From the sequence record KJ190157: 64,000 nucleotides of DNA. One strand, given 5' to 3'. The DNA comes from Escherichia phage vB_EcoS_FFH_1. The notes below the pieces were generated by a model. That model ran no database searches. It saw only the letters and a program-made list of their open reading frames with translations, and was not told where the DNA came from. This document shows positions 12,256 through 24,666 of this stretch, piece after piece. The position numbers were made by a program, and so were the translations under genes. Position 1 is the first letter of the stretch, and every line of letters begins with the position of its first letter.

Positions 12256-12748
12256 TACTCCAATTATTTTTCTAGACATTGATGGGGTGCTCAATTCGAG
12301 CATCTCCCACCATCATGCACCTGATGATGAAAAGATTTTCTTTGGAAGTGACTGGGTTTTCAAACCGCTTCTCAAGGCTTTTCAGGACTTTATTCGTCCT
12401 TCTCCGATAATGATTGTTGGGGTATCCTCATGGTTCTCTGTCAGGAATGAGATGGAGAACGTTCAGATTATGACCGGATTAGGTCTTATCGATCGTTTTC
12501 TTGGTACAACGGATTTTACTGGTGGTGGGCTATCTAGGGGTAATTCTGTTCTTCGCTTCGTTGAAAAGCATAAGCTCAAACATTGGTGTGTACTGGATGA
12601 CGCTGGTGCTATGATGTATCAGTATCCAACGGTTATAGTCAATGGTAGAACTGGAATAAATCTTCAAGATTTAAAAGCTGTTAGCTATATGCTAGAATTT
12701 AGCCCAGATCTTGAAATGTGTAAATCCTTACAACAATTTAAGGTGTAA
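12242..12748 (+). CDS. HAD-superfamily hydrolase-like protein (putative phosphatase/nucleotidase)
   Basis: HAD motif I FLDIDGVLN near N-terminus and motif IV-like WCVLDD; 168 aa. Confidence 0.55.
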   Translation: MEISNTPIIFLDIDGVLNSSISHHHAPDDEKIFFGSDWVFKPLLKAFQDFIRPSPIMIVGVSSWFSVRNEMENVQIMTGLGLIDRFLGTTDFTGGGLSRGNSVLRFVEKHKLKHWCVLDDAGAMMYQYPTVIVNGRTGINLQDLKAVSYMLEFSPDLEMCKSLQQFKV

Positions 12749-12750
12749 AT

Positions 12751-13179
12751 ATGTTCAATAATGTATTCTCTAAAGAAGCTAACCCAATTTTGGTTAACTT
12801 TTGGCGTACTCTCCCAGCTAGCCTGTATAATGAGGCTATTAACTCTTTGAAAATATGGTGTGAGAATAACGAAATCTCCTTTGCTTTTAAAGATGATATT
12901 GATGAGGCTCCCTGTATTGTTTTAATTGTGCAGGTAGAGGAGGGTCTTGAAGAGATTGTGGGCTGGAAAGAGTTAGACGAAATGGGCTTAGTTTTTGCGT
13001 TAAATTATAAACTGTTTATGCCTGCTAAGCATCGCCTTGTTGTTAACTATAAAACTAGTGAATCTCCTGGTTTTCAGGTTAATGAACGTTATGGTTGGTC
13101 TTACTCACCGGAAGAAGTAAATGAGGGGATTCAGAAACTTCGACGTTTCGGGTATATGATCCCGGGTTTAACTGCTTAA
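12751..13179 (+). CDS. hypothetical protein, paralog A of tandem pair
   Basis: 142 aa; shares conserved blocks (SF.F...PCI, MGL..ALN..LF.P, L.R.G..PGL) with the next ORF. Confidence 0.5.
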   Translation: MFNNVFSKEANPILVNFWRTLPASLYNEAINSLKIWCENNEISFAFKDDIDEAPCIVLIVQVEEGLEEIVGWKELDEMGLVFALNYKLFMPAKHRLVVNYKTSESPGFQVNERYGWSYSPEEVNEGIQKLRRFGYMIPGLTA

Positions 13180-13581: not shown

Positions 13582-13605
13582 TTTTTACTAGCTGAACTCT
13601 GATTA

Positions 13606-13628
13606 CCGAGTCAAAATGACTCGGTTTT
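13606..13628 (+). terminator. intrinsic terminator after paralog B
   Basis: CCGAGTCA-AAA-TGACTCGG 8-bp stem followed by TTTT. Confidence 0.65.
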
Positions 13629-13672
13629 ATCCGTACTCAAGACCAATGATAGCACCATCCGGAAAATTTTAC

Positions 13673-13701
13673 TTGCAGGATGCCCAAAATCTTGATATAA
13701 T
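13673..13701 (+). promoter_or_regulatory. strong sigma70-type promoter TTGCAG-N17-TATAAT with TGn extended -10, no ORF downstream
   Basis: -35 13673-13678, TGA 13693-13695, -10 13696-13701. Confidence 0.5.
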
Positions 13702-14193
13702 ATTTATATTGAGAGACATTAGTAAAAATTGATTTTGCTAATTTTTCTTGTTTACAATCCGCGATACGGAACAGTTAGGCTGCCCCATTAAGGGTTGTTT
13801 TAACTATTACTAGTGTTTATATTGCATTAGTTAATCTTCAATTAAGTGATCTGTGTACCCTGAATTCGGAAAGGTAAATCCAAACCGTGCATATTTAGCT
13901 CGTTATATAGGCAGAGCTTTATATGGGGGTGCGAACGAAAAGAGCAGCGAATGGCGGCACGTACAGTAGTCACCTACCAATAGGATAGTGAGGACAAATA
14001 GAATCGGCTTAGCGGCCAATGACCTAGGTTCTATTCTGTATATGAGCGAAGAGAGCACAGCACTGAGATATGATAACTTATTCATATTGTTTGATGATAA
14101 TTGATGTTTACGTAAATAGTAGTAATAGTTGTTCTATTCTTTCTGAATAGTCCTAAAGAAAAGATTTCTATTAATCAACACAGGAGTATTGTT

Positions 14194-16983
14194 GTGTTTT
14201 CTATCCTCCAAGGTCACGCCGGTTTTTCTCGTGATTTAGCAACAGGTATTTGGCGAGAAATCAAAGCGGAAGATTATACCTTTGCCAAACGATTCTCGAA
14301 AGAGCATCCAGAAGGTAAACCAGCTTCTATGCCCTTCAAATTTGATGTAATAGAAGAGCACGACCCACAAAGCCTTGCCGAAATGTTACCACTTATGAGA
14401 CGTTTAACGTCTGACCCTCATATCGTTGCGGTACGAGGTCGATGTCTTGCACCTAAAAATAATGTGCGACGTAAGAAAGGTAACTTTAATGTATCCAACC
14501 CTAGCAATATTATTGCTATGGACGTGGATGGTATCCTAGATACCGGTGGGTATGACAAGTTTAATCTTGTAGGTATGGCTCGCCACATTATTAAGATGTT
14601 GAATAGTATTAGTGAGGATATGTTTCCTCTTGATGCAGGGTTTATTGCTCATGCATCGTCTTCGGCTGGCCTAAAACCAGGTATCCGAATGCACTTAATG
14701 CTAGAATCTAACGTCAAGGTAACTCAAGGTCAGTTAAAGTTCTTATTTACGTCTATCAATGATAGTAGTAAGCAAAAATTCGGTTTTGATATTGCCGACT
14801 TAGCTTATTACTCATCTGTCCAGCTTCACTATTTTGCCGACCCTTTATTTAGCGATGGTATTGTTGATCCGTTTAAAGCGGAGAGTAAGCCACGTCTGGT
14901 ATATGTTAAAGGTTCGAAGGTAAATTTGCCCAATAATCTGGTTGACTATGAAACAACTAGAGGGGAATTTAAGGAAGAGTTTTATTCTTTACTTGATCAA
15001 ATTAAAGGCAAAAAGATTGCTTCTGATAAAGTAGAAGAAACCATCAGCGAATTGGAAGAAGCCGAGGATGGGGTGTACTTGCGTATTATCCCCAAACTCT
15101 ACCATAGAGCATTAGAGGATGGTGTTGATTTCGCATGGCTAGAACGCGAGATTAAACCCGCTTTATCTGAATATATTGCAACTAAAGATAACAGTCGTAA
15201 TATTCAAGATTACTTTAATAACGGTCGTAAGCAGGCTCTCAAAGCGTTTGTTAATAATTCTAAACGTGAGATCCCATTAAATCTGAAGGGTGTTCCACTC
15301 AAGAAATTAGAAGTGGATTCTCCACCAGAAGTTCCGTACCTGAAGATTAACATTGTGCCTCCAAAAGGCCATATAACATTTGTTAAGGCAAGTCTTGGTA
15401 CTGGTAAGACTACGGCAGTAACTAAATGGCTGGACGCAGGTGTTCTTCCTGGCAACTTTTTAGCAGTTACAAATACTAGAGCACTGGTATCTTCAAACGC
15501 TAAGAAATTTAGCGCAGGACAATATGATAAGTCTGTAGATATGCTCAACTTTAAACGTGGAGCTATTGATCGTATGTCTACAACTATCCACTCTTTGCAT
15601 AAGTTCAAAAGTTTTATTGGTCAAATAGATACCATTTTTATTGATGAATGTGATGCTGTAATGAATGATCTATTATTCGCACCTGTTGTTAAGCAACGTC
15701 GCGAATGTATTCAAGTTCTACGTGACATCCTCATGACAGCTAAAACTGTAATTCTATCAGATGGTGATATTAGTGCCGAAACTATTGAAGCATATGGTTC
15801 TCTAATTGATTTTGATAAACCAGTAGCATTTTATAATCATCACCGTAAGATGCTGTCAAAAGCTCATGCTTATGAGTTCCCGGATGAATCCAGTATTTGG
15901 GTTGCACTTCAGACCTCTCTAGAGATGGGTGAGAAATCTATCCTAGTATCTGATTGTGGGCCGGATGAACTGAATGAGAAGGGCATGGCATTGCGTCGTA
16001 ATACGGGTGCGCTAGTTAAGGAAATCCACTCAAACTCCACTTCAGATGTGGATATTAGACGTATTCTGGATTATACGACTAATGAGTTAATTGATCAACA
16101 AATTGACTGCTTATTATGTAGTCCATCCGTAACGAGTGGCGTTGATTTCAACTATTTTGATAACGTATTTGTTATTACTAGAACTAGTAATCAAGCGCCA
16201 AACATGCGTTTCCAAGCAATTAGGCGCGACCGTGGTGCTCAGAATATCTATTATTTTATTGATAAATCTACGAGTGGATTCTCCGCAGGTTCTGAACAAT
16301 ATAATATTGATGAGGGTTGGCTGGAGTTAGCACAGCAATTATACGCACGTCGCAGAGAGCTAGAATCTAGGAACTATACTAGTACTTTACGTTATTACTT
16401 GCTTGATCAGGGTGCAACTATTGATATTTTCAGTGAAAGTTGGGGAACTATTGAAGGTGCTGGTAAAGAGTACACAGAAGAGCGAATTAAAGCTATTCTA
16501 CATTCAACTCCTGATTATTGTGCTCCACGTCATGCGGATGCGTATGAAGCTAAACTACTTCTTGTCCGCTATTATCATCTTGAGTCTATTAAAGATGTAA
16601 CAGTTGAGCATGTTGAACAATATATCAAAGATAAACCGAATGATCGAGCTGCATTCTTCCATAAGATGCACGAGATGTTCTGGGAAGATATTAAGAAGTG
16701 TTCAAATGTGACCATTAAACCATTCATAGAGGCTCTGAAAGGTAAGAAGAAAGACTTCTTCCTTAAAACAGGTCAGAGTGCTAACCCAAAATATGCTAGA
16801 ATGTATCTTGGTATGATGGGTATTGGTAAGGATATGAACACTGAAAATATTGTAGACTGGTACAGAACCTATTGTAAAATCGAGTGTATGCCAATCCCAT
16901 ATAAGTTTATGACTGATGAGGAGAAACATATGCATGATGAAGCAATGGCAGAGCTAGGTGCTAGAAATGACAGTGAAGAATAA
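14194..16983 (+). CDS. large P-loop NTPase (929 aa), putative replication initiator / origin-binding helicase-like protein
   Basis: GTG start with AGGAG SD; central Walker A LGTGKTT and Walker B FIDECDAV; ~380-aa N-terminal domain of unknown fold. Confidence 0.55.
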   Translation: MFSILQGHAGFSRDLATGIWREIKAEDYTFAKRFSKEHPEGKPASMPFKFDVIEEHDPQSLAEMLPLMRRLTSDPHIVAVRGRCLAPKNNVRRKKGNFNVSNPSNIIAMDVDGILDTGGYDKFNLVGMARHIIKMLNSISEDMFPLDAGFIAHASSSAGLKPGIRMHLMLESNVKVTQGQLKFLFTSINDSSKQKFGFDIADLAYYSSVQLHYFADPLFSDGIVDPFKAESKPRLVYVKGSKVNLPNNLVDYETTRGEFKEEFYSLLDQIKGKKIASDKVEETISELEEAEDGVYLRIIPKLYHRALEDGVDFAWLEREIKPALSEYIATKDNSRNIQDYFNNGRKQALKAFVNNSKREIPLNLKGVPLKKLEVDSPPEVPYLKINIVPPKGHITFVKASLGTGKTTAVTKWLDAGVLPGNFLAVTNTRALVSSNAKKFSAGQYDKSVDMLNFKRGAIDRMSTTIHSLHKFKSFIGQIDTIFIDECDAVMNDLLFAPVVKQRRECIQVLRDILMTAKTVILSDGDISAETIEAYGSLIDFDKPVAFYNHHRKMLSKAHAYEFPDESSIWVALQTSLEMGEKSILVSDCGPDELNEKGMALRRNTGALVKEIHSNSTSDVDIRRILDYTTNELIDQQIDCLLCSPSVTSGVDFNYFDNVFVITRTSNQAPNMRFQAIRRDRGAQNIYYFIDKSTSGFSAGSEQYNIDEGWLELAQQLYARRRELESRNYTSTLRYYLLDQGATIDIFSESWGTIEGAGKEYTEERIKAILHSTPDYCAPRHADAYEAKLLLVRYYHLESIKDVTVEHVEQYIKDKPNDRAAFFHKMHEMFWEDIKKCSNVTIKPFIEALKGKKKDFFLKTGQSANPKYARMYLGMMGIGKDMNTENIVDWYRTYCKIECMPIPYKFMTDEEKHMHDEAMAELGARNDSEE

Positions 16984-17200
16984 AAAATGGGAAACAAGGA
17001 AGTTCCCAGTAAAAGAACGTAAAGTTCCTGTTTATGATACTTCGGAAAAGCTATGTAGGGTGGTACCGCATAGATTAGCTGGTATCCCTAACATATCCGA
17101 ATGGTTACTTAAACAACGGAAAACAAACGTGTCTCTTCGCATCGGCTTTGAGTTAGATAAAGTCTATGCTGAACTTGCTTCTTTGCTCAAGGAATCGTAA
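16958..17200 (+). CDS. hypothetical protein (80 aa)
   Basis: ORF overlapping the end of the 929-aa gene; no motif. Confidence 0.3.
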   Translation: MLEMTVKNKKWETRKFPVKERKVPVYDTSEKLCRVVPHRLAGIPNISEWLLKQRKTNVSLRIGFELDKVYAELASLLKES

Positions 17201-17268: not shown

Positions 17269-17973
17269 ATGGCTGGTTCTCGCAGAAAGAAACATATCCA
17301 TGAAATCCCGGATGAAGTCTTTAAAAAAGTTATAGAGCATCTGGAGAACGGTGGTACTAAGAAAGCAGCATGTGAAATGCTTGGCGTATCATCCAACCCA
17401 ACTATGGAAAGGATGATAGAAGAGTGGCAAGATCGCCAAATTCAAGTTGCCGAGATGAAGAAAAAGAAACGTGGCACACTCATTGAAGGCATTGAGTTGG
17501 CCAACGTTATTGAACAGTATCTATCTGGCGATTCTTTTGAAGAGATTGCCGATCGTAATTACCGCTCTGTAGCAATGGTTAAATCTGTTCTGGAACGCTA
17601 TGGTGCTCTGCTTCGTTTGAACGATATTGTAGATCCATTGAATCCACCAATTATTCCTGATGATGCTGTAGCAGAAGAATTTGAGGTAGGTGAGCTTGTT
17701 TGGGTTCCTGGATACCAGTGTATCGGTGAAATCAAAAAAGCAATGGATACCCCTGTTGGTTGTTACCGTGTATGGCTTCTATCAGAAGGCAAACAACAGA
17801 ACGTTCATTATATGAATTATGAGTTGGCTTCTGTTAAACATCTGGAAAAGCTAGGGGTTGATGTAAAATCTCTAGGGTATAAGTGGACTCGTGAAGAAGT
17901 TATTACGTTGATTAACGAAGCTGTTAAGGCTGCCTTGAAACTTGATAAAGAAAAAGGAAAACGCCGTGAGTAG
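17269..17973 (+). CDS. helix-turn-helix protein, putative early regulator
   Basis: Downstream of near-PN25 promoter and GAGAGGAG SD; HTH-like segment TKKAACEMLGVS near N-terminus. Confidence 0.55.
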   Translation: MAGSRRKKHIHEIPDEVFKKVIEHLENGGTKKAACEMLGVSSNPTMERMIEEWQDRQIQVAEMKKKKRGTLIEGIELANVIEQYLSGDSFEEIADRNYRSVAMVKSVLERYGALLRLNDIVDPLNPPIIPDDAVAEEFEVGELVWVPGYQCIGEIKKAMDTPVGCYRVWLLSEGKQQNVHYMNYELASVKHLEKLGVDVKSLGYKWTREEVITLINEAVKAALKLDKEKGKRRE

Positions 17974-22241: not shown

Positions 22242-22276
22242 AAGGGGAGGGGGCTATGCTCCTTCCCCTTTTTGCA
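22242..22276 (+). terminator. intrinsic terminator after the HTH-repeat protein gene
   Basis: AAGGGGAGG ... CCTTCCCCTT hairpin followed by TTTTGC. Confidence 0.65.
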
Positions 22277-22306
22277 TTTAGAAGGCACGAAAGCGTGCAA
22301 AGGAGA

Positions 22307-23779
22307 ATGACCTTGTTTAACGTGCAAGCTGTAGTGTTGAAGATGCTTCTAGCTTCCGAACAGAAGCAGATAGCATTGGAAACATTCTCAAAACTGCATA
22401 AAGATCATTTTAATGACGCTTTCTCCTCAATTTACCAAGCCGTCCAGAATTATTATAAAAAATATAACACAATGCCGTCCATTGACGCACTGATGCTTGA
22501 GGCTAATAGGAACGCCCGCCTTTCTCAAGCTCTAGTCGTTTTAGCTAACACTCAAATTCCAGAAGTTAGCATGGAACAGGCACTTGAAGTCCTAGAGGCC
22601 GAGTATACACAGGATTTATTCCTGAAGCTTCTAGAAACAGACGTGCTTCAAGATTTAACAATGCTGGATCAGGGAGAAATTCTTAACCGAGTTGCCTCCC
22701 TTCACTTAAAATTAGAAGAGAAAGTAACGAATACTGGAAAAGTATTCAACGCAGATAACATGCGTATTTTCCAGAGAGAAGAAGATACCAAACTGAACTT
22801 AATCGCTCTTGGTATTTGTAATGAGTTCGACGCTCAAATTGGTTTAGCTCGCACAGAAACGTTACTGCTTGGTGGTTGGCGTGGTACTGGTAAATCCATT
22901 ATCTGTTCAAACATACAGGTTCAGCAATATTTGAATGGAGATATTGCTCCATACTTCTCAATTGAGATGAAAGAACATGAAGTATTTAGACGTAATCTAG
23001 CCATGTTAGCTGGTGTATCCGCACTAGCAATGCGTAATAATACTCTAGAAGGTGCAGCTCTGTTGAGATTAGCCAGAACTAGAGCTAGGATGTTTAACGG
23101 TGGTGAAGAGCTTTTCGATAACTTCGTTAAACAGTACACAATGGCTAAGATGAGTGATTTCTACGATATGGAGAGTAAGCTAATAGAAGGATATGAGCTA
23201 CATACTCCTATGATTATTGTTTATGATCCTGAGCTGTCTATTACAACAGTTGACGTAGAATTAAATAAATTAGTTGCTAGATATGGAGATAAAGTTACAG
23301 TAGCTTTACTGGACTATATTAACCAAACCCGACTTCCAGACTCTAAAACCATTGATATGTATGACTGGAAAGAACAGATGGTTGTTAGCTCGTCTTTCAA
23401 ATCTATCTGCCAGAAACATAACGTGGCTGGTGTAGCTCCTTACCAGATCGATCAAGATGGTAGAACACGTATGTCAAAGGGGATTCTTGATTCCGCAGAC
23501 ATGGCTGCTAATCTTAATGCTGCAAAAGCTGATAATGGTCAAGGTGCTATTATGTTTGACTTCGTTAAGACTCGTTCTTCTGATAGCGTGAAGTTTATGC
23601 CTAAGATGAACTGGGAAACTCTGCGAATGGATAATACAACTAACCTAGCAATGGAAGATATATCTCAAATGGAAGCTGAGTTCGTTATCCCTATTGAGAA
23701 GGATAAGCCGGCTCAACCTAAACGTGCTAAGAAAGACAAAACTGAAAATTCAACAGGTGAACAGGCCAGCGATATATGA
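22307..23779 (+). CDS. DnaB-like replicative DNA helicase
   Basis: Walker A GGWRGTGKS, LLDYINQ (H2-like) and downstream H3/H4-like blocks; start at ATG 22307 with AAAGGAG SD (the upstream ATG at 22256 sits in a terminator loop). Confidence 0.7.
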   Translation: MTLFNVQAVVLKMLLASEQKQIALETFSKLHKDHFNDAFSSIYQAVQNYYKKYNTMPSIDALMLEANRNARLSQALVVLANTQIPEVSMEQALEVLEAEYTQDLFLKLLETDVLQDLTMLDQGEILNRVASLHLKLEEKVTNTGKVFNADNMRIFQREEDTKLNLIALGICNEFDAQIGLARTETLLLGGWRGTGKSIICSNIQVQQYLNGDIAPYFSIEMKEHEVFRRNLAMLAGVSALAMRNNTLEGAALLRLARTRARMFNGGEELFDNFVKQYTMAKMSDFYDMESKLIEGYELHTPMIIVYDPELSITTVDVELNKLVARYGDKVTVALLDYINQTRLPDSKTIDMYDWKEQMVVSSSFKSICQKHNVAGVAPYQIDQDGRTRMSKGILDSADMAANLNAAKADNGQGAIMFDFVKTRSSDSVKFMPKMNWETLRMDNTTNLAMEDISQMEAEFVIPIEKDKPAQPKRAKKDKTENSTGEQASDI

Positions 23780-24666
23780 GTAGAATAACAGAACTACTTG
23801 ATCTGAAAGGCATTGAATATAAAGACACAGGTGGGGACATCCTCATCTGTTGTCTCAATCCAGATCATGACGATAAACACCCAAGTTTGCGTATTGATCC
23901 TGAAACAGGTATTATGCACTGCTTGAGTTGTGGCTTCGGTAAAGGTATACCGAGCATTTACCATTATTTTAATGAGACTCAGTACCGACAGTCTCCAAGA
24001 CTATCACAGGTACGTAAAAAGATTTCAGAGATTAGGAATGGATCAACGAATCTTGCAATTCCTGAATCTGCTTACCTTTTCGAAGGTGATTTCCGAGGTA
24101 TAAGTTCTAAGACCTTGAAGAAATATTTTGCTTTCCAACACCAAGCAGACTGGGAAGGCAGAATTGTATTCCCAATCACAGATGCTGTTGGACGCAATAT
24201 CCTATTTTTGGGTCGTTCTATAAACAGTTCTGCCCCTCCTAAATACTTAGTAAAACCAAAACAAGTTTCACCGCCAATTTTTCCTGTACGATATAATACT
24301 CCAGTTCTTATTCTAGTTGAAGGCATCTTTGATATGCTGAACCTAGAGGATAATGGTATAGACTATGCTTCTTGCTGCTTTGGTACACATCAGTTTACTT
24401 CGGATAACATTGCAGATAAGTTCAGTCCTTATATTATTGCTGGGGTAAAAGTTGTTGTTATCTTACTAGATAATGATGCTTCTGGTAATAAAGCTGCACA
24501 AGCATTGGCTAAGCTAATTCGTACAAAAACGCGTTTAACACCTGTAGTTGCTAACTTCCTCCTGCCTGAAGGCAAAGATCCAGGTGATTTAAACAAAGAT
24601 GAAATTGATATGTTAGCAAAACGTATTGAAATTTTAGTTGCTGAATCGCTTAAAGATTTGGTATAA
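23776..24666 (+). CDS. DNA primase (DnaG-like, zinc-binding + Toprim)
   Basis: Zn motif CCLNPDHDDKHP...HCLSCG and Toprim motifs EGIFDMLNL / LLDNDASGNKAA; ATGA overlap with helicase. Confidence 0.8.
   Translation: MSRITELLDLKGIEYKDTGGDILICCLNPDHDDKHPSLRIDPETGIMHCLSCGFGKGIPSIYHYFNETQYRQSPRLSQVRKKISEIRNGSTNLAIPESAYLFEGDFRGISSKTLKKYFAFQHQADWEGRIVFPITDAVGRNILFLGRSINSSAPPKYLVKPKQVSPPIFPVRYNTPVLILVEGIFDMLNLEDNGIDYASCCFGTHQFTSDNIADKFSPYIIAGVKVVVILLDNDASGNKAAQALAKLIRTKTRLTPVVANFLLPEGKDPGDLNKDEIDMLAKRIEILVAESLKDLV

Follow-up and report, generated by a model that had tools for sequence, protein, structure and literature searches.

The gene at positions 14194 to 16983 of the window, by which we mean the whole stretch of 64,000 nucleotides from Escherichia phage vB_EcoS_FFH_1 (KJ190157) that was analysed, probably encodes a primase-helicase initiator of replication, composed of an AEP primase domain, a helical bundle, a UL9-like helicase and a C-terminal helical domain. 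We favour this combined reading because the N-terminal third of the protein is predicted to have a primase-polymerase fold in which the active site is intact. The gene itself, D2, is already known; what is new is the primase-type reading of the N-terminal third. How T5 initiates replication is still a puzzle, although the phage has served as a model for half a century, and D2 has so far been regarded as an "unusual bipolar helicase".

Identity and genomic setting of D2

The window belongs to a T5-like phage. According to the ORF listing and its translation, the D2 coding sequence (14194..16983, plus strand) is uninterrupted and comprises 929 aa plus the stop. It starts with GTG at 14194-14196, and a Shine-Dalgarno sequence (AGGAG, 14182-14186) was read with this start codon 7 nt downstream. 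Orthologs from other genera begin with ATG at the corresponding position of the alignment and have the N-terminus MF(S/T)IL in common, which supports the GTG start at 14194. In the GenBank record of Elw the D2 CDS begins 45 codons later; judged from the aligned sequences, that annotation is probably too short.

Compared with T5.108 of phage T5, which is equal in length, 915 of 926 residues were identical in a gapless alignment (99%). The substitutions lay mostly within the last ~25 residues and nothing material in the sequence was affected. The protein also matched PHROG 3712 from end to end (1829 bits; residues 1-926 of 927 profile positions), and a tblastn search with residues 1-385 found it in 904 phage records. 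The ORF is therefore real, far beyond chance, and by its sequence it is the ortholog of T5.108, the bipolar SF2 helicase "D2". Orthologs are usually annotated as "replication origin binding protein".

The T5 protein (T5.108 / AAU05245) has been studied biochemically. A DNA-stimulated ATPase and ssDNA binding, most likely as a monomer, were demonstrated (Wong, Sayers & Sanders 2013, PMC3632103), and unwinding was bipolar, stronger in the 3'-5' direction and present in the 5'-3' direction too. The exchange K405E abolished both ATPase and unwinding, so that the Walker A residue K405 is required. Outside the helicase core the assignments were limited to an HTH at residues 308-329 and to coiled coils, and the authors proposed the protein as a replication initiator (PMC3632103). 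D2 amber mutants made no net DNA, as cited in the same paper. The assignment of these classical mutations to T5.108 is tentative, as in RefSeq the label D2 in T5 is given to T5.111 (234 aa).

In the Elw, HdH2 and T5 annotations D2 follows the nrdD/Sir2 block and precedes D3, ligase, D5, the DnaB-like helicase and the primase. A Pfam scan of the neighbours in the window gave the same picture downstream, with a split NAD-ligase, D5, a DnaB-like helicase and a DnaG-type primase. D2 is conserved, single-copy and the first gene of this cluster, as the earlier note, made from the letters of the window alone, had placed it. The ORF-free region which that note saw beside the gene was also found: a stretch of 612 nt (13582-14193) without a conserved ORF precedes D2.

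The N-terminal domain has a predicted AEP fold

The N-terminal and C-terminal regions of D2 remained without assignment in PHROGs, Pfam and NCBIfam. The earlier note had guessed that the first ~380 residues might be a primase-polymerase fold, quoting the strings IIAMDVDG and LHYFADPLF, which are indeed present as residues 106-113 and 211-219. This guess was supported by structure prediction and by two independent fold searches on the predicted N-terminal structure, which returned almost exclusively AEP enzymes with moderate scores. In the predicted structure the fold of the AEP catalytic core was recognised, and the AEP (primase-polymerase) domain was placed at residues ~25-252 (14266..14949, plus strand).

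The relatives of residues 1-385 were gathered by an exhaustive HMMER search followed by a family-profile search; a word-indexed search with these residues alone gave only two fragments. Among 1.84 billion representative proteins 85 relatives of the AEP family were detectable, and the ten that were checked in public sources were unnamed, "hypothetical" or "predicted P-loop ATPase". The canonical motifs could be followed through the alignments. Motif I (IIAMD110VD112G; D110-x-D112, nt 14521-14529) lies inside the model strand 104-114, and both aspartates are invariant. In motif II (AS155SS157AG159LKPGIRMH167L) S155, S157 and H167 are invariant, G159 is conserved in at least 90%, and H167 is located on the model strand 164-176. 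Motif III is represented by D202 (ADLAYY), invariant like Y206. A candidate for motif IV is the invariant R234-L, 32 residues after D202; the "Rh" of an All3500-type motif IV is expected ~10 residues past motif III, a position that in D2 is occupied by H212 (QLH212Y). The catalytic DxD, His and Asp stayed invariant in relatives down to 24-30% identity and were also kept in remote PriCT-2/VapE-type homologs. Remote homologs have primase-helicase architectures, in which the AEP domain is fused to replicative or initiator types of helicase.

The available profiles did not recognise the family. AEP models of Pfam had no matches at E<=1 in 25 D2-family members and none at E<=0.01 in 47 remote homologs. 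No AEP or PriCT model of NCBIfam matched D2, and the Pfam PriCT models were likewise absent in family members. A sequence search of the PDB with the remote-homolog profile matched a VapE helicase only, and the D2 domain contains no zinc finger. Our literature search found no paper that ties T5 D2 to AEP or PrimPol. We infer from the model and the conserved residues that the N-terminal domain is probably a catalytically competent primase or primase-polymerase.

The AEP domain is followed by a helical bundle (residues ~261-356; 14974..15261, plus strand), which contains the HTH 308-329 predicted by Wong et al. and is possibly a primase accessory domain of the PriCT or pRN1-HBD-like kind.

Helicase core and C-terminal domain

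The central P-loop ATPase with large regions on either side, noted earlier, was confirmed. The SF2 (UL9-like) helicase core covers residues ~389-700 (15358..16293, plus strand) and is supported by matches to PF02399, PDB entries, Foldseek targets and CyRepA1. Walker A is found at residues 399-406 (nt 15388-15411), with GTGKT at 402-406 and the lysine K405. Walker B reads FIDECD and includes D484 and E485, and the arginines of motifs V/VI are R672, R678 and R680. GTGKT, D484-E485 and the three arginines are invariant in the family alignments.

The Pfam family PF02399 (Herpes_ori_bp) matched residues 389-533 with 30.5 bits (gathering threshold 20; E 1.3e-7) and was found in 12 of 25 D2-family members. 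When the PDB was searched by sequence, herpesvirus origin-binding proteins were the only family matched. With residues 380-929 as query, the top four Foldseek matches were HSV-1 OBP chains (E 1e-15 to 1e-13), whereas generic SF2 helicases reached about 1e-10, five orders of magnitude weaker. The NCBIfam model CyRepA1 (NF042913) matched residues 392-708 with an E of 5.9e-35.

Behind the core the AF2 model of residues 380-929 (pLDDT 90.1) contains an all-helical domain at residues ~709-921 (16318..16956, plus strand), with high-confidence helices. It is a candidate DNA-binding or oligomerisation module. In sequence no similarity of this domain to the DNA-binding domain of UL9 was detectable, and the similarity of D2 to UL9 ends at residue 532. 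A part of the domain may nevertheless be aligned in the Foldseek UL9 match, which extends over ~540-575 columns.

The leader of the D2 mRNA is structured

The 612 nt ahead of D2 carry the signals of a transcription unit on the plus strand. An intrinsic terminator of the preceding operon was read from the sequence at 13606..13629 (CCGAGTCA-AAA-TGACTCGG followed by TTTTA), and one is annotated at the equivalent position of T5. The strong sigma-70 promoter of the D2 unit (13673..13701), which is annotated in T5, consists of TTGCAG, a spacer of 17 nt and TATAAT with a TG extended -10; the predicted transcription start is ~13708. All enterobacterial T5-like lineages examined have retained a promoter of this form, 500-800 nt ahead of the D2 start.

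RNAalifold covariation revealed a structured RNA of ~365 nt in the leader (13768..14131, plus strand). It has an invariant hairpin at 13768-13786, an outer helix in which 13801-13821 pairs with 14111-14131, and an inner helix between 13851-13856 and 14055-14060. Two further hairpins were found, GGCU-UAGC-GGCC at 14006-14017 with a covarying flanking helix, and one at 14067-14088. In an RNAalifold analysis of eight leader types 27 of 44 pairs showed compensatory changes. In the controls, 87% of cells were paired against 32-53% with the partners slid, and the observed score was reached in none of 500 shuffles. The folds of subgroups agreed with the overall structure. In the MFE fold of the leader the Shine-Dalgarno sequence and the GTG start (14182..14196, plus strand) lie in a small hairpin (CAACAC, SD in the loop, UGUUGUG), which is conserved in Tequintavirus and Epseptimavirus leaders and not in the Klebsiella and Pectobacterium types. 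Rfam gave no relevant match at E<=1 in the leader of the window or in seven divergent leaders, and the element was not detected by simple motif searches ahead of the Vibrio-type or metagenomic relatives of D2. With its unusually clean covariation the leader RNA is a separate lead.

Other explanations of the region were rejected. No ORF is common to the leader types, and a minus-strand ORF of 60 aa (13903..14085) is interrupted in a relative with 92% identity. A classical origin found no support, as iterons were missing and only weak two-copy repeats were present; nor is the region AT-rich relative to the genome (leader GC 0.36-0.45), and inspection by eye showed no DnaA-box-like arrays. A symmetric DNA cruciform was discarded as the opposite strand pairs worse (75.4% paired, compared with 87.0% on the sense strand). 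The ORF-free region of the earlier note thus exists, but instead of the features of a classical origin it holds a conserved promoter and a sense-strand structured RNA. We concluded that the leader of ~490 nt with its structured RNA most likely controls the expression of D2; it could also take part in initiation.

The role of D2 in replication

In the combined primase-helicase reading, the helicase module of D2 would open duplex DNA at the initiation site, and the AEP active site (D110, D112, H167, D202), aided by the helical bundle, would make the first primer. The separate DnaB-like helicase, the DnaG-type primase and Pol A would then assume fork propagation. By analogy this would be the logic of the primase-helicase initiators pRN1 ORF904, poxvirus D5, P4 alpha and CyRepA, and D2 would also bind an origin. 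The earlier label "putative replication initiator" agrees with the proposal of Wong et al. 2013 and with HSV-1 UL9 as the top structural match, and putative it stays. Two points speak against the combined reading. The phage has a DnaG-type primase already and has no obvious need of another, and the strand bias of recombitrons in T5 suggests that replication is dominated by one genome end (PMC10055335), which is at odds with a dominant origin in mid-genome beside D2.

D2 might instead be a PrimPol-type re-priming or translesion enzyme with a bipolar helicase, serving repair or restart rather than initiation at a defined origin. It would then work at forks that have stalled, at the nicks naturally present in T5 DNA, or during recombination-dependent replication. 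We regard this as unlikely, although it is the alternative that survives best. The helicase core is closest to the bona fide initiators UL9 and CyRepA, the fusion partners of the remote AEP homologs point the same way, and D2, conserved and single-copy, stands first in the replication cluster. A failure to make net DNA, as reported for the amber mutants, also exceeds what would be expected for a repair factor.

The N-terminal domain might also be catalytically dead and serve in DNA binding, origin recognition or protein interaction, so that D2 would be a helicase only. A parallel would be SV40 T-antigen and papillomavirus E1, whose origin-binding domains arose from nucleases that had been inactivated. 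In favour of such a loss are the failure of all AEP HMMs, the missing zinc finger and the moderate fold scores, and the helicase core accounts for all published activities (PMC3632103). The invariance of every canonical AEP catalytic residue at such low identity would be unexpected in an inactivated domain, and the remote PriCT-2/VapE-type homologs keep the same residues. We therefore consider this explanation improbable. That D2 is not a replication protein at all, and instead a packaging ATPase, a transposase or a defence or anti-defence NTPase, is hardly credible, since no terminase, transposase or defence family matched, family, structure and context all point to replication, and nothing in support was found; the assignment to an unrelated family that the earlier note had named as its refutation did not occur.

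A bolder version of the primase-helicase reading is that D2 opens and primes DNA by means of a previously unrecognised AEP family and that the leader RNA is part of the same device. The RNA might form an R-loop, or it might be the precursor of a primer, to be unwound or extended by D2; alternatively, D2 could bind it and in this way autoregulate its own synthesis. We hold this version to be speculative and rather unlikely. If true, it would define the initiation mechanism of T5 together with a new class of phage RNA.

Should the N-terminal third be active as a primase-polymerase, D2 would count among the plasmid and viral primase-helicase initiators as a rare combination of AEP with an SF2 (UL9-like) helicase, and T5-like phages would possess two primase systems, AEP and DnaG-type, that divide the labour. 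Recognition of an AEP family that is invisible to Pfam and NCBIfam would also improve the annotation of several hundred phage genomes.

Comparison with known systems

T5 D2 (T5.108) is orthologous to the protein of the window, lies at the same locus and has the same Walker A/B and V/VI motifs. The difference is one of interpretation: residues ~25-252, here assigned to the AEP fold, have no such assignment in PMC3632103.

HSV-1 UL9 (PDB 9hgi, 9hgj) is the solved structure closest to residues 380-929 (Foldseek E 1e-15). Both proteins are SF2 helicases with a role at initiation that is proposed or shown. UL9 has no AEP domain, the herpesvirus primase UL52 being a separate protein, and it unwinds 3'-5' only, whereas D2 is bipolar. 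Their sequence similarity is confined to the first RecA-like domain (D2 residues 385-532), and a D2 counterpart of the sequence-specific C-terminal DNA-binding domain of UL9 is hypothetical.

AEP primase-helicase fusions are found in pRN1 ORF904, poxvirus D5/E5, ASFV PrimPol and NrS-1 polymerase with hexameric SF3 helicases. D2 differs from these by its non-ring SF2 UL9-like helicase and by an AEP family that Pfam models miss. Alike in architecture is the All3500 AEP of the PrimPol-PV1 supergroup, which in bacterial mobile elements is fused to a PF02399-related SF2 helicase (Kazlauskas et al. 2018, PMC5862659); T5 is absent from the data sets and supplementary lists of that study. Membership of the D2 domain in All3500 was rejected, as hhalign against 12 primase domains gave a probability of 0.4% (E 0.14) over an irrelevant stretch.

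CyRepA1 and CyRepA2 (NF042913, PMC10079941) have a homologous helicase core with a primase-related domain in front, as in D2, and suffice for autonomous plasmid replication. Their N-terminal domain is DUF3854 (Toprim-related), that of D2 has the predicted AEP fold, and D2 stays below the CyRepA1 cut-off (121 bits against 200), matching profile positions 2-317 of 595, the first half only. By analogy, CyRepA offers a functional precedent for an initiator made of a primase-type domain and a UL9-like helicase.

The D2 gene

The open reading frame at 14194..16983 (+ strand) comprises 929 codons from a GTG start, with a Shine-Dalgarno sequence, AGGAG, 7 bases 5' of it (14182-14186, + strand). The frame is uninterrupted. 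The earlier note had described a 929-aa P-loop ATPase with central Walker A and B motifs, and this was confirmed: Walker A (GTGKT) comprises residues 402-406, Walker B (FIDECD) contains D484-E485, and the strings quoted there were found in the translation. D2 orthologs of other genera have an ATG at the same aligned start and share the N-terminus MF(S/T)IL, and the start was therefore considered sound; one GenBank record (Elw) places it 45 codons further 3'. By megablast the region showed approx. 96% nucleotide identity to T5-like phages (Tequintavirus, Demerecviridae). The protein is identical to T5.108 of phage T5 at 915 of 926 residues, and a match to PHROG 3712 covers it end to end. The gene is already known as that of the T5 D2 helicase, because T5.108 (AAU05245) is the protein purified as "D2" by Wong, Sayers and Sanders (PMC3632103).

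In that study the T5 protein showed DNA-stimulated ATPase activity, ssDNA binding and bipolar unwinding, 3'-5' more than 5'-3', all of which were abolished by the Walker A exchange K405E (PMC3632103). An initiator role was proposed on similarity to HSV UL9, and D2 amber mutants were cited as lacking net DNA synthesis (PMC3632103). Beyond the helicase core (389-690), the authors assigned no more than coiled coils and a predicted HTH (308-329) (PMC3632103).

Most records label the protein "replication origin binding protein", a few "5'-3' and 3'-5' helicase", "DNA primase C" or "DNA primase". Wong et al. used the name D2 for the 929-aa protein; the T5 RefSeq record gives it to the 234-aa T5.111 (product 'helicase'), and the Elw record calls the T5.111-equivalent ORF 'D2 protein'. 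The homolog of T5.111 in the window (17269..17973) has only a weak HTH_28 match. As the naming is inconsistent, it is uncertain which ORF bears the classical DNA-negative D2 amber mutations. When 16958-17200 was compared with 12319-12837 of T5 (L003), T5 was seen to have an HNH homing-endonuclease gene, hegI (T5.109), that overlaps the 3' end of the D2 gene. The phage studied here has no hegI, and D2 is directly followed by the T5.110 homolog; 9 of the 11 amino-acid differences from T5 D2 fall in the last 25 aligned residues, beside the hegI insertion point.

A predicted archaeo-eukaryotic primase fold in the N-terminal domain

Residues 1-385 of D2, used as query in an exhaustive HMMER search of 1.84 billion representative proteins, detected only 85 relatives, about 30 of them full-length D2-like proteins. 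The weaker matches aligned over residues ~30-260 and carried PriCT-2, D5_N, Pox_D5, VapE-like, DUF5906 or AAA_25 helicase modules; such fusions are classic primase-helicase architectures. Homology with the remote relatives was confirmed by hhalign across residues 25-252 (probability 99.9%, E 2.8e-37). Two alignments were made, one of 25 family members and one of 43, with identities as low as 24%; D110, D112, S155, S157, H167, D202, Y206 and R234 were invariant among the 43, and G159 was invariant among the 25 and at least 90% conserved among the 43. These invariant residues follow the order of motifs I (DxD), II (His), III (Asp) and possibly IV (Rh) of the archaeo-eukaryotic primases (AEPs), as defined in PMC5862659.

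The AlphaFold model of residues 1-385, built from 43 sequences, was confident (pLDDT 89.3); in it D110/D112 lie on the strand spanning residues 104-114, and H167 on that spanning 164-176. Its fold-match scores were moderate, with human PrimPol (6.7), the monkeypox E5 AEP domain (6.5), the HSV-1 UL52 primase (6.0) and vaccinia D5 (5.8) followed by HP0184, pRN1 ORF904, S-2L PrimPol, NHEJ polymerase and LigD PolDom (5.4-5.6) and the pRN1 helix-bundle domain (5.4); all remaining entries were generic helical repeats matching the D2 helical bundle. Foldseek was concordant: AEP enzymes made up 48 of the top 50 matches, led by LigD PolDom (E 1.5e-3, probability 0.98-0.99). Shown by computation, therefore, is an AEP fold whose catalytic constellation is conserved throughout, with a helical bundle after it. 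This supports the suggestion in the earlier note of a primase-polymerase fold in this part of the protein.

Neither Pfam nor NCBIfam covers this family, and no curated AEP or PriCT HMM matched any of its members. Of ten remote relatives checked, four are called only "hypothetical protein" or "predicted P-loop ATPase" in public sources, and six are nameless. We regard as one new element the predicted placement of the N-terminal third in an AEP family so far without annotation, its active-site residues intact; our literature search found no paper tying T5 D2 to AEP or PrimPol. This small AEP-like family, with the signatures hDhDG, SSSAGxKPGIRxHL and VQxHYxAxPxF, also occurs in bacteria and metagenomes (P0039-P0087 of the search, e.g. 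Paramagnetospirillum magneticum amb0656), stand-alone or fused to PriCT-2, VapE, D5-like or RepA-type helicases.

A structured leader RNA upstream of D2

The ORF-free region 5' of D2 is no obvious origin: iterons are absent, the repeats are weak and present in two copies only, and the region is not AT-rich. Within it lie a terminator (13606-13629) and a promoter close to consensus with an extended -10 (13673-13701); all enterobacterial T5-like lineages examined have kept this promoter, 500-800 nt 5' of D2. From the promoter position D2 has a transcribed leader of ~490 nt (13708-14193, + strand) with a structured core of ~365 nt (13768-14131). Neither a conserved ORF nor a match to Rfam families was found in the leader.

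Approximately ten leader types exist, only 40-64% identical to one another, and they diverge even where the D2 proteins are 94-100% identical. Every type keeps the island CTTAGCGG and a 5' hairpin (13768-13786); the motif of this hairpin is present once in each genome and is confined to T5-like contigs. RNAalifold, run on eight leader types, predicted on the + strand an outer helix of 20 bp that pairs 13801-13821 with 14111-14131, an inner helix formed by 13851-13856 and 14055-14060, a hairpin GGCU-UAGC-GGCC at 14006-14017 and an additional hairpin at 14067-14088. Compensatory changes were seen in 27 of 44 predicted pairs, 87% of cells were paired, compared with 32-53% when partners were slid, and the covariation score was 0.416 against 0.10-0.15 in controls; none of 500 shuffles reached the observed values. 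Subgroup folds were concordant, and every type has its own version of the helix that flanks the island hairpin. Pairing was more complete on the sense strand (87.0%, with 54 G·U cells) than on the opposite one (75.4%, with 14 G·U cells), which argues for a sense-strand RNA and against a DNA cruciform. We regard this leader RNA beside D2 as a second new element; the simplest reading is that it controls the expression of D2, and it may have a part in initiation.

In L021/L009 (other Tequintavirus) and Yersinia phage phiR2-01 (L010) the middle ~300 nt of the leader (~13822-14110) is swapped for unalignable sequence of similar length, with flanking genes 94-100% identical and the helix architecture kept overall, a pattern suggestive of fast turnover, or of cassette-like exchange, among the peripheral helices of the RNA. 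At 14176-14196 a small predicted hairpin, CAACAC...UGUUGUG, holds the D2 Shine-Dalgarno in its loop and the GTG start in its stem and could limit translation initiation; leaders of Tequintavirus and Epseptimavirus keep it, whereas those of the Klebsiella and Pectobacterium types do not. The distant T5-like Aeromonas phage vB_AdhS_TS3 (L007) has a 1.6-kb stretch without annotated gene 5' of its D2 ortholog (1219-2808), with two copies of CTTAGCGG, one tipping a long predicted hairpin. The leader RNA may have a larger relative in this stretch.

Proposed role and comparison with known systems

Helicase and ATPase activity is shown for the T5 ortholog, and together with the predicted primase fold we infer that D2 is a primase-helicase. 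It would open the DNA, synthesise the initiating primer and then hand over to the phage DnaB-like helicase (22256..23779), DnaG-type primase (23776..24666) and polymerase. The main alternative is that D2 acts in repair or re-priming, as repair AEPs are the best structural matches of its N-terminus and strand-bias data suggest that replication proceeds chiefly from one genome end. An inactivated AEP-like domain is less likely, because the catalytic residues are invariant.

The helicase core of this putative primase-helicase resembles herpesvirus origin-binding proteins (OBPs). The sole Pfam match in D2, above cut-off, was PF02399 (Herpes_ori_bp, residues 389-533), and PDB sequence searches, whether by the protein alone or by its family profile, matched these proteins only, and solely over the first RecA-like domain. 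The AlphaFold model of residues 380-929 was confident (pLDDT 90.1, pTM 0.83), with an all-helical C-terminus (709-921) that fell into no assigned family. Its best Foldseek matches were four HSV-1 OBP chains (E 1e-15 to 1e-13, alignments of ~540-575 columns), followed by generic SF2 helicases (E about 1e-10). Fusions of the All3500 AEP family to UL9-like helicases are known (PMC5862659); as a home for the D2 domain the family was rejected, being not detectably related (hhalign probability 0.4%). The plasmid-replication family CyRepA1 (NCBIfam) matched D2 residues 392-708 with E 5.9e-35, under its cut-off. CyRepA combines a Toprim-related DUF3854 domain with the helicase type matched by D2 and supports autonomous plasmid replication (PMC10079941).
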